Assembly (NCBI GenBank): GCA_011526565.1
Contig: WYBL01000116.1
Span: forward strand, 3,019 to 67,018
Length of the DNA stretch: 64,000 nt
DNA from: Acidobacteriota bacterium
Lineage (GTDB): Bacteria; Acidobacteriota; Vicinamibacteria; Fen-336
Direction: 5' to 3'
Positions 20,638 to 23,600 of this stretch are shown one piece after another; position 1 is the stretch's first letter; each line of letters opens with the position of its first letter. The translations under genes were made by a program, and so were the position numbers. The notes beneath the pieces were generated by a model that was given only the letters and a program-made list of their open reading frames with translations, ran no database searches and had not been told where the DNA came from.

Positions 20638-23600
20638 TCACACGGCGTTGCGGGTCGCGGCGAACAGCGCGGCGGGGTCGGCGGGGGCCGGCAACGCGGG
20701 CGCCGCCAGCGCGTCGTCGACCCAGGCGGGACGCCGCATGCCGACCAGCACGCAGGACACGCCCGGGGCCGCCAGCAGGGCGCGCAGGGCGAGCCGCGAG
20801 GTCGGCGCAACCGTGGGCGCGTGGTGCAGCAGCCCCTCGCGCACGGGCTGCAGCGCTTCGCGGCTCTTCGCCGCCGCCTGCGACCTCACCGCGTCGAGCA
20901 GCCCGCGCAGGGCCGGCAGGTAGCGCTCGCGCCACTGCTGCCACTCGCGGCCCGCCGGCCCGGCCAGCGCGCCGTCCAGGGCCCGCAGCAGCGACTGCAG
21001 GCGGGGCATCACGCGGTACGCCTCGATCTGCTCCCAGTGGGGGAGCCCGGACACCGCCACCGCCGCCTGCCGCAGCTCGGAACCGAAGCGGAAGAACTCG
21101 GCCGGCGGCAGCGAGCCATCGGTCTGGAGCTGCGAGGCGAGGCCGCGCCGCCACTCGTCCTCCAGCGCCTCGACCCCCAGCGCCGCGGCCTCGACGTCGC
21201 CCGGCTCGCCGGCGTCCGCCGGATCCGCCAGCCGCAGCAGGCCGCCGGCGTACATCGCGTTGAGCGGGCGGTTGACGAGCACCGCGAGGCCGGCCTCGCG
21301 GGCGAGGTCGAGCGTCGAGCGGCCGCCCGCGTGCTTCTTCTCGAGCAGCGGGTCGGCCTCCAGCAGGTTCATCGGGAGCTGCAGCACGCGGAAGCGGTGC
21401 CCGTCGCCGCCGGCCTCGCGGGCGCAGGCCAGGAAGCGCTCGAGCGAGGTCGACTCCGGGTCGGCATCGGGCGCCCCGACCGTGTTGGACGAGACGCCGT
21501 ACGCGCCGAGGCGGCCGGCGTCGACCAGCGCCTCGAGCGCTCGGAGGGCCGCCGTGACGCGGGCGTAGAACTCCTCGCGGCGCGACTCGACGCTGCCCCG
21601 GCTGCGCTCGTGCGCGTCCTTGAGGAAGTACTCGGGGTTGTGCAGCAGCAGCACGTCGAGGCTCCGCAACTGGAGGCGGTCGAGGCTGCGCTCGAGCTGG
21701 TCCTCGAGGAACTCGGGGTGCATGCAGTGCCAAAGGTCGTCGTCGTACTTGACGACCTCGGGGAACGGCCGCTCCTCGGCCTCGCGGGCCTGGGCCAGCT
21801 CGAAGTTGTCGCCCTGCAGGTAGCCGACCTTGGAGACGACGACGACCTCGTCGCGCGAGAGCGTCCCCTCGGCGACGAACTCCGCCAGCACCTCGCCGAA
21901 GAGGCGCTCGCTGCCGCCGTCCATGTAGTTGGTCGAGGTGTCGAGCAGGTTGACGCCCCGCTCGAGCGCGCGCGCCAGCGCCTGGTGGTGGGCCGCGGTC
22001 TCGTCTTCGACGCGGTAGCCGCCGAAGCCGAGGCGGCCCACCGTGAGGCCCGTCGCGCCCAGCGGGCCGAAGGCCGCCTCCGCGCAGCCCGCCTCGCGCA
22101 GGCGACGCGCGTAGCGGGCCGTGCCCTCCGCCGTCGCCAGGCCGGCCAGGCGACCGGCCTCGAGGCCCGCGCGTTCGCGCACGGGCGCCGGCGGGTCGGC
22201 AAGGGCCGCGGCGACCTCGGCGGGCTCGGTCACCGGGCGCCGGCAGGCGTAGTCGCGGCAGACGTAGAGCGCGGCGCGGCCCTCGACCAGTCCGCGGCCG
22301 GCCAGCAACGGCAGCGTCGCCGATTCGACGGGTTCTGGCGCCGGGCGGAGCCCGTCGCCAGTCCCATGGGGGCTACGTCGGACGACTTCGACCTCCTCCG
22401 CCCCCAAACCCCCGACGGGTTCTGGCGCCGGGCGGAGCCCGTCGCCAGTCCCATGGGGGCTACGTCGGACGACTTCCACCTCCTCCGCCCCCAAACCCCC
22501 GGCGGGTTCTGGCGCCGGGCGGAGCCCGTCGCCAGTCCCATGGGGGCTACGTCGGACGACTTCCACCTCCTCCGCCCCCAAACCCCCGGCGGGTTCTGCT
22601 GGTTCCGCGTGGGCGACGACCTTCGCGGGCAGGAAGTGGCGCGCGAGCTCGGCCTCGAGCGCCTCGCGGGCGGGATCGCCCGGCGCGCCGACGAGCGCCA
22701 GCTCGAGGGGCCCGTGCTGCAGGAAGTCGGCGACGATCAGCGACCGCGCGAAGGCCCGCGGCTGGCGCGAGACCGCGCGGCCCCACGCGCGCAGCGCGAG
22801 CGCCGCTTCTTCGCGCCACGCGGGCCTGTCGAAGTGGTGCGACAGCCGCAGGAGCAGCGAGGCGGCGCAGGCATTGGCGGACGGCGTCGCGCCGTCGTGG
22901 CCCTCGCGGTGGCGCACGATCAGCGCCTCGGCGTCGCGCGCGGTCTGCCAGAAGCCACCTTCGCCGCCGCCGAAGTCGAGGCGCATGCGCACCCCGAGTC
23001 GCAGTGCCTCGTGCAGGTGCTCCTCGCTGCCGCCGGCCTCGTAGAGGTCGACGAGCGCCTCGCCGAAGTACGCGTAGTCCTCGAGGAAGCCGGGGATGTG
23101 GGCGACTCCCGCGCGCCAGGCGCGCAACAGGCGGCCGTCCGCCGTCCCGAGCGCGTCGCGGACGAAGCGGGCGGCGGCCTCCGCTGCCGCCAGGTAGCGC
23201 GGCTCGCGCAACACGCGATGCCCCTCGGCCAGCGCGGAGATCGCGAGGCCGTTCCACGCGGTCAGCACCTTGTCGTCGAGGCCGGGCTGCACGCGGCGGT
23301 TGCGCGCGGCCAGCACCTGCGGCCTGGCGGCGTCGACCGACGCCTCGAGTTCCGCGAGCGGCAGGCCGAGCCGCTTCGCGGAGACCTCGGGCGACTGCAG
23401 CAGGTTGGGGATCGACTTCCCCTCCCAGTTCCCGGAGCGGGTGACGTCGTGGTACTCGCAGAAGCGGCGCGAGAGCTCGGCGTCGCCCAGCGCCGACTCG
23501 ACCTCCTCCGGCGTCCAGACGTAGAAGCGGCCCTCCTCGCCCTCGGAGTCGGCGTCCGTCGCGGAGAAGAAACCGCCGCCCGGGCCCTGCATCTCGCGCA

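Follow-up and report, generated by a model that had tools for sequence, protein, structure and literature searches.

A stretch of 64,000 nucleotides from contig WYBL01000116.1 (positions 3,019 to 67,018 of the forward strand; assembly GCA_011526565.1) of a member of the Acidobacteriota, placed in the Vicinamibacteria (Fen-336) and referred to below as the window, carries three near-identical 87-bp units head to tail inside a gene for a fusion of a YyaL-type protein (DUF255/SSP411) with an aldo/keto-reductase (AKR). The locus raises the question of how such a repeat came to lie in frame within an enzyme gene: by duplication of host sequence in place, through an error of assembly, or by the arrival of a mobile element. 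Very probably the array consists of three head-to-tail copies of a small non-coding repeat (84-87 nt, with a long form of 165 nt) that is dispersed in Vicinamibacteria genomes. Our verdict is that this element family was previously undescribed and is of an already known type, comparable to the Rickettsia palindromic elements (RPE), the mycobacterial interspersed repetitive units (MIRU) or the miniature inverted-repeat transposable elements (MITE).

The array and its host gene

By a wide margin, the top-scoring tandem array found in the window with Tandem Repeats Finder lies at 22326-22598 (period 87, 3.1 copies, 98% matches, no indels, score 525), and it was matched by the nhmmer profile of the element with E values of 1e-25 to 1e-26. 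The plus orientation of the element is defined here as the plus strand of the window, which is antisense to the host gene. Only two sites vary among the units, position 65 (G, C and C in units 1 to 3) and position 3 (A, A and G, with G also in the partial unit that follows). The original prediction, made from the sequence alone, had described a near-perfect threefold 87-bp repeat in frame, which both Tandem Repeats Finder and the six-frame translation of the minus strand bear out; dissection of the units in the phase used there (start at 22330) likewise shows the second and third units to be identical, the first to depart from them at 2 of its 87 positions, and 8 nt of a fourth to follow (GGGTTCTG). 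The very recent expansion of the array proposed at that time is supported. A CRISPR array, which combines direct repeats with unique spacers of similar length, had rightly been set aside: the units abut without any spacers and lie inside an intact open reading frame (ORF).

The host gene is read on the minus strand from an ATG at 24525 to a stop codon at 20638-20640, with codon starts at positions divisible by 3, and the array codes for residues ~643-733 of its product. The insert amounts to 87 residues (261 bp) and, because it is free of stop codons and a multiple of three in the frame of the gene, the protein stays intact. Six-frame translation of the minus strand gives a 29-aa unit starting with A or V three times, followed after ~19 residues by the motif YVCRDYAC, whose cysteines C756 and C761 are invariant in an alignment of 30 sequences. 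With its N-terminal DUF255 domain (PF03190) and a helical body followed by YVCxxxxC, the host shows the features of the YyaL/SSP411 proteins. The insert had thus been placed correctly ahead of this motif in a YyaL-type protein, but the motif does not stand near the protein end, as had been supposed, since an AKR domain comes after it. The YyaL-AKR fusion, which had gone unmentioned, is an architecture widespread in Vicinamibacteria and Methylomirabilales, with hundreds of fusion orthologues of ~1200-1220 aa. A YyaL ORF that stops inside the repeat (22547..24430, 627 aa), taken from a mechanical ORF list, was rejected as a spurious high-GC frame, as the six-frame translation reads through it; the list misleads at this gene because a G+C content of ~75% keeps all three minus-strand frames long and open.

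An AlphaFold model of residues 1-790, computed with 29 orthologues as alignment (predicted template modelling score, pTM, 0.82), places a helical body over residues ~142-604. The insert is bounded by two strands, 635-640 (KVVAHA) and 752-757 (LYVCRD), both with a predicted local distance difference test (pLDDT) score >90, while residues 645-735 are modelled as coil with pLDDT 25-34. The insert is therein predicted to extend a surface loop, variable by nature, by 87 disordered residues. Both the catalytic and the cysteine motifs are intact, and the host enzyme probably remains intact with a disordered loop of 87 residues.

An empty site in orthologous genes

The ancestral state of the site was read from the 29 best matches that are non-identical to the query protein. 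Not one of these 29 orthologues carries a copy of the 29-aa unit, which settles the check by presence or absence that had been proposed in favour of absence. The two closest (P0002, 94% identical and 1209 aa; P0003, 89% and 1205 aa) both lack the unit, and subtraction of the 87 residues from the 1295-aa window protein gives 1208 aa, compared with 1209 aa in the former. In the insert-free orthologues, ~8 variable residues join the strand ending in VVAHA to the sequence LPLLxGK, and the empty site is also seen at the DNA level in L001 and L002, the two nearest loci without the insert. The linker was thus empty in the ancestor, as it is in the nearest relatives. The G+C content at third codon positions (GC3), taken in the host frame, is 0.95 in both flanks and 0.72 in the array. 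Because the orthologues hold zero copies and GC3 drops within the array, all 261 bp are, on this comparison of sequences, to be regarded as a lineage-specific insertion of which the ancestral linker is not the source.

Dispersed copies in Vicinamibacteria genomes

Species-representative genomes were scanned with the conserved block GGGCTACGTCGGACGAC-N5-CCTCC of the element, which was found on five contigs of one Vicinamibacteria metagenome-assembled genome (MAG; JAMQGV01) and once in another (JAMPXO01). The YyaL site of the JAMPXO MAG is empty, yet copies are present elsewhere in its genome. A metagenome scan returned eleven loci, including new sites at L015, L019 and L020, and a profile built from the copies found added two more in L002, a second in L011 and a tandem pair in L010. 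Altogether, at least 14 distinct DNA sites are occupied, and some 20 further host proteins come on top of these. Roughly half of the sites lie inside coding sequences; the intergenic copies are found right after stop codons, between convergent genes, 5 nt ahead of a start codon, and between tRNA genes.

The original prediction had offered a variable number tandem repeat (VNTR), an assembly-sensitive region, or a small mobile unit that resembled repetitive extragenic palindromic (REP) sequences and happened to insert in frame, and had named the finding of dispersed copies as the result that would recast the repeat as a mobile-element insertion. Such copies were found in related genomes, in intergenic as well as genic positions. 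A unit of the mobile type is the primary explanation, because dispersed copies exist and the orthologues have an empty site; the other two options survive as secondary truths. A plain local VNTR, in which a native linker-coding stretch was duplicated in place by slippage without any mobile element, is extremely improbable: the near-identical head-to-tail units and the 9-12 nt of microhomology at the array ends would fit it, but orthologues carry zero copies instead of one, the 87-mer is shared by numerous unrelated loci and by other genomes, and the codon-position GC of the unit is unlike that of the host gene.

In-frame copies in other genes and tandem arrays

The coding context of the copies was judged by codon-position GC and by Pfam domains on the flanks, as ORF length is useless at 75% GC. 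In addition to the genic sites identified in DNA (Table 1), a peptide search yielded 26 proteins with E<=1, of which ~18 had E<1e-3; it was queried with two of the five open frames, so that frame usage in this census is biased towards those two. A first search with the five frames concatenated gave only 2 proteins, the poly-P and R-rich frames having probably swamped the word-based selection of candidates. Those proteins that bear an organism name are all from Vicinamibacteria. The hosts include SGNH hydrolases, a glycogen-debranching-type protein, RlmD-like methyltransferases, FHA and DegQ proteins, as well as radical SAM, HisF, MoeA, glycosyltransferase and HPr kinase proteins.

Within host genes the element occurs in both orientations and in at least three frames, reading for instance GGLGAEEV..., DGFRRRAEP... 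(opposite strand) and TGSGAGRSP.... Because one DNA element is translated as unrelated peptides, conservation is judged to lie in the DNA, the peptide not being the conserved unit. The same evidence bears on a selected protein module, that is a 29-aa peptide serving as functional linker or binding motif and spread by recombination. Its presence in many proteins, always in frame, speaks for such a module; we nevertheless hold it to be very unlikely, given that the DNA is read in at least three frames and both orientations into unrelated peptides, that many copies are intergenic, that the peptide is predicted to be disordered, and that conservation is at the level of DNA and structure.

Arrays are found at several of the loci: besides the three units of the window there are 2.7 units at L025, two at L010, two plus two in P0128 and two in P0130. 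The 2.7 units at L025, in an SGNH hydrolase gene, are identical 87-nt units, and a second SGNH hydrolase holds 2 units. The glycogen-debranching-type gene of P0128 carries two two-unit arrays in opposite orientations (residues 51-105 and 355-398). Tandem multiplication, as far as these arrays tell, is a habit of the element family.

Structure and ends of the element

The alignment of copies yields a consensus of ~87 nt, (CGA)CGGGTTC - hairpin - TCCCATGGGGGCTACGTCGGACGACTYCGRCCTCCTCCGCCCCCAARCCCCC, made up of a covarying 5' hairpin and a conserved 3' half. Three size classes were distinguished: 87 nt, a subfamily that is 3 nt shorter (84 nt), and the long form of 165 nt. All unit sizes seen (84, 87 and 165 nt) are multiples of three, also in intergenic copies (window, L002, L003, L023, L025). 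The units of the window belong to a subfamily with the hairpin TGG...CCA and are 98% identical to a copy in JAMPXO01 (L009), whose host gene is only 82-87% identical to that of the window.

Stem-loop 1 is formed by CTGGCGCCGGGC gga GCCCGTCGCCAG, with 11 of the 12 positions of its arms paired. An inverted repeat had been recognised in each unit earlier, though its length, given as 6 bp, was too short: the arms are of 12 nt around a 3-nt loop, and the hairpin covaries. Among 12 distinct copies, double substitutions occur in 5 of the 12 pairs (8 cells), a level reached by none of 500 column shuffles, while slid registers give at most one such pair. Stem-loop 2 has one covarying pair, UA to CG, in the RNAalifold consensus. 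Folded as single-stranded DNA, a single unit is more stable than its shuffles, with z scores of -2.3 and -3.2 for the two strands. The minus strand of the element has an invariant GTAG, set apart from the stem by 12 nt. Nearly all copies have at their junctions a short direct repeat xCGG(G)(TTC) of 3-11 nt, up to CCGTCGGGTTC; it is because copies are bracketed in this way that the array of the window ends in a 12-nt "fourth start". A target preference of the IS91 type (GTTC/GAAC) was considered for these ends and dropped, as the MsrA target is without the motif.

The covariation and the folding, together with intergenic copies after stops, between convergent genes, 5 nt before a start and between tRNA genes, would also suit a functional structured RNA or DNA signal (a REP-like stabiliser of mRNA, a terminator-like structure or a small RNA) of which the genic copy is a by-product. 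Such a function is improbable as the explanation of the element, which occurs in both orientations and inside coding regions, where signals of this kind would be harmful or meaningless, and in which no T run follows the hairpins as read from the sequence. No Rfam family was matched at E<=1 on positions 22000-22900 of the window, and at the other loci only tRNA and signal recognition particle (SRP) RNA were matched. Similar sequences were searched for in the PLSDB plasmids and INPHARED phages, with no match.

Variation of the site among sibling strains

The 90% identity cluster of the window protein includes P0121, P0122, P0123 and P0124. The cluster of the 1295-aa P0001 also lists P0125, a 34-aa, AT-rich-looking peptide of a 2.6-Mb ENA contig, which almost certainly owes its place there to an artefact of clustering. 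P0122, from another MAG (L004; GCA_023384615.1 contig 18), has three units as well. On a near-duplicate contig of the same MAG (L005; contig 19), the array is broken after two units by 100 N at 12105-12204, with the gene annotated in two pieces as "partial" proteins (P0121/P0123; MCL4821388 and MCL4821389); this gap shows directly that the array is sensitive to assembly. At positions 3 and 65 the unit variants run [A,G][A,C][G,C] in the window versus [A,C][A,C][A,G] in L004, a difference that reflects either turnover of the array or ambiguity of assembly.

These data bear on whether the insert is real and the count of three an artefact, produced by collapse or expansion of a repeat that exceeds the read length. 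The 273-nt array does exceed typical short reads, and the gap after two units and the differing variant order both point that way. Against this, the window and GCA_023384615.1 contig 18, assembled independently of each other, both have exactly three units, multi-unit arrays of the element were assembled at several other loci, and the variant sites are 112 nt apart, so that a k-mer or read of ~127 nt or longer could put the units in order. A wrong count is thus rather unlikely.

P0124, present on five contigs (L003, 11926-12088 in GCA_013329015.1; L016), shows a different state, with a 55-aa insert at the same codon-level site as in the window. The DNA of this insert is the 165-nt long form in opposite orientation, composed of the 5' 40 nt, ~78 extra nt and the 3' 46 nt of the element. 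Across the strains, as represented by their assemblies, the locus therefore comprises three units each in the window and in L004, a gapped array in L005, and the other form in L003, with the genes of the window, L003 and L004 ~98% identical in DNA. A near-identical 165-nt long form is found in an RlmD-like gene of another genome (L023, 4980-5142), and the L004 MAG has the short form at that very site (L024, 10507-10594).

The opposite orientation in L003 could have arisen through inversion or rearrangement of one ancestral insert, with no second insertion. The shared codon-level site in genes ~98% identical favours this, as does the middle of the long form, which weakly resembles an inverted partial unit. 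Because a near-identical long form exists in L023, however, the form in L003 is not taken for a local rearrangement: it is near-identical over ~165 nt to a copy in another gene and genome and so behaves as a discrete member of the family, while the units of the window are of another subfamily (hairpin TGG...CCA) and 98% identical to L009. We regard the rearrangement as unlikely, if less so than the artefact of unit count. The simplest reading, from these alignments, would be that a family active until recently occupied a preferred site twice, each time independently; inversion or conversion would be the alternative.

A model for the origin of the array

One unit would have entered the loop-coding linker beside an xCGG motif, either in a manner like transposition or through microhomology. 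The direct repeats that bracket it (CGGGTTC...) may then have served replication slippage or unequal recombination, by which three units arose, possibly with the help of the hairpins. Selection would act only as a filter, with genic copies surviving where they fall in a loop, keep the frame open and have a length divisible by three, and the element itself would be selfish or neutral DNA and no functional protein module.

Several points weigh against the proposal that the array is made of copies of a dispersed mobile-type repeat. Searches with blastn-short and nhmmer found no other copy of the unit in the rest of the 64-kb window, so that abundance of the element in the genome of the window itself is not shown. 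No transposase, REP-associated tyrosine transposase (RAYT) or parent insertion sequence (IS) was seen in the loci examined, where no dedicated RAYT search was made, and mobility is deduced from distribution. The copy number depends on MAGs assembled from short reads, and on one sibling scaffold the array itself is interrupted. The flanking direct repeat is always xCGG(G)-like and may hence be part of the element as opposed to a target-site duplication; the terminal inverted repeats are weak (~11/17 by eye, CGGGTTCTGGCGCCGGG versus the reverse complement of GGGGTTTGGGGGCGGAG); and the covariation of the hairpin could also reflect a function at the RNA level.

A broader proposition can be put forward tentatively, and is about as likely to fail as to hold, with the former slightly favoured: that free-living soil Acidobacteriota harbour an active family of "protein-coding" selfish repeats, which re-targets xCGG-type sites in either orientation and in multiple-of-three sizes, gives rise to in-frame minisatellites and to length polymorphism between strains in dozens of housekeeping enzymes, and is possibly moved by a hairpin-recognising enzyme of the HUH/RAYT type.

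Features of the locus and other repeats in the window

The features of the host gene, the array and the additional copies are compiled in Table 1.

Table 1. Positions of the host gene, the repeat array and further copies of the element. Coordinates are those of the window unless a contig is named.
Feature	Position	Strand	Basis or setting
Host gene, fusion of YyaL (DUF255/SSP411) with aldo/keto-reductase, 1295 aa with the insert	20638..24525	-	Six-frame translation, Pfam
Thioredoxin-like DUF255 domain (Pfam Thioredox_DsbH), residues 10-171	24013..24498	-	Pfam, E = 2.4e-77
Aldo/keto-reductase domain, portion matched by Pfam Aldo_ket_red, residues 832-1017	21475..22032	-	Pfam
Conserved YVCRDYAC motif, C-terminal in the YyaL part, residues 754-761	22243..22266	-	Translation, ortholog alignment
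Whole array, three full units and 12-nt terminal direct repeat	22326..22598	+	Tandem Repeats Finder, unit dissection
Unit 1, variant A3, G65	22326..22412	+	Unit dissection
Unit 2, variant A3, C65	22413..22499	+	Unit dissection
Unit 3, variant G3, C65	22500..22586	+	Unit dissection
Partial fourth start CGGCGGGTTCTG, 12 nt	22587..22598	+	Flanking/terminal direct repeat of the element, core CGGGTTC
Stem-loop 1 of unit 1, 12-bp stem, one mismatch, 3-nt loop	22335..22361	+	Inverted repeats, covariation
Stem-loop 1 in units 2 and 3	22422-22448, 22509-22535	+	Inverted repeats
Stem-loop 2 of unit 1, TGGGGGC...GCCCCCA around invariant core GGGGCTACGTCGGACGAC	22367..22406	+	Inverted repeats, RNAalifold
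Stem-loop 2 in units 2 and 3	22454-22493, 22541-22580	+	Inverted repeats
L002, diverged copies of the 84-nt subfamily	13629-13711, 18695-18774 (JAMPXO010000025)		11 nt past the stop of the orthologous YyaL-AKR gene; between the next convergent gene pair
L010, tandem pair	185-349 (JAMQGV010000024; also L018)		Between two tRNA genes, SRP RNA gene immediately adjacent
L011, in MsrA (P0126)			Just ahead of the PMSR domain
L015, in DEAD-box helicase-like protein			Internal
L019, in acyltransferase-acyl carrier protein (ACP) synthase, polyketide synthase type			In linker
L013 and L014, in one secreted protein			1.5 units
P0127, PhzF-family protein			Internal

Two other repetitive regions were noted in the window. 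Overlapping short-period tandem repeats (periods 6, 12, 24 and 30, GGCTCG-type) at 36448-36851 presumably represent a low-complexity coding region, and an imperfect CGC trinucleotide run of ~16 copies, also scored with period 9, lies at 17293-17359.

Comparison with known repeat systems

In its behaviour the element is like the RPE; homology of sequence is not to be expected, given the taxon and its GC content. The RPE (Ogata et al. 2000, 2002) are described, in the passages on them in PMC10969869 and PMC3184786, as hairpin repeats of ~100-150 bp that are found in frame in many unrelated housekeeping genes, where the encoded peptide is tolerated by the fold, and also in intergenic positions. 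The Vicinamibacteria element is likewise a small, hairpin-forming dispersed repeat that is found between genes and in frame in many unrelated ones (YyaL-AKR, MsrA, PhzF, RlmD-like, helicase, AT-ACP synthase, SGNH hydrolases and others), and in the one host examined for it, the gene of the window, the AlphaFold model and the variable linker of the orthologues place the insert in a fold-compatible surface loop. It differs in being shorter (84-87 nt), in having two separate stem-loops in place of one long palindrome, in its frequent head-to-tail in-frame arrays, and in its host, a free-living high-GC soil Acidobacteriota in contrast to a reduced intracellular genome.

The MIRU-VNTR loci of mycobacteria (Supply et al. 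1997) consist, as outlined in the part of PMC3184786 devoted to them, of 40-100 bp units at tens of loci, often in tandem arrays that vary by strain, with GC-rich internal inverted repeats, tetranucleotide direct repeats at filled sites and ORFs through the unit. The present element shares with them a unit size in this range at many loci of a high-GC genome, head-to-tail arrays, internal inverted repeats, short direct repeats and open frames. MIRUs, however, belong to another phylum and are described as lying between the genes of operons, where they overlap the ends of the genes next to them, whereas about half of the sites found here are genic.

With REP sequences and REPINs the element has in common a GC-rich imperfect palindrome with compensatory changes, a high copy number and a conserved GTAG. 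REPs are extragenic sequences of ~21-65 bp that have the GTAG directly at the stem, typically form inverted doublets, and are mobilised by RAYT transposases. Here the GTAG stands 12 nt off the stem, the repeats are direct, and many copies are genic; neither the extragenic location (about half of the sites are in genes) nor the inverted doublets of REPs and REPINs are seen. By analogy, the GTAG near the hairpin is only a lead towards a biology of the REP/RAYT type.

Bacterial MITEs such as QMITE1 of Coxiella, ERIC, BOX and Nezha can also fuse in frame in ORFs (PMC10969869, PMC5896051). They resemble the element in being non-autonomous and small, in their stable secondary structure, in the short direct repeats at their flanks, and in that they can be in frame; canonical MITEs differ from it in that their terminal inverted repeats are clear and a parent IS can be recognised, the terminal inverted repeats of the Vicinamibacteria element being weak.

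No description of such a family was found in the open-access literature on repeats in Vicinamibacteria, and the in-frame colonisation of coding genes by a small repeat was held, in the passages drawn on from Ogata et al., to be a peculiarity of Rickettsia. The element represents no new principle; with it, abundant soil bacteria offer a clear system of the RPE/MIRU kind that apparently had not been described, and a second natural system for studying how selfish DNA builds new protein loops and linkers. Its arrays are candidate VNTR markers for the typing of Vicinamibacteria strains in metagenomes, and they also constitute a systematic hazard for MAG assembly and annotation, in which the repeat breaks genes in two (as in P0121/P0123) and protein lengths come out inflated. 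If the broader proposition made above is true, the element would be the equivalent, in free-living bacteria of high GC content, of what the RPE are in Rickettsia, combined with a VNTR behaviour like that of the MIRUs.

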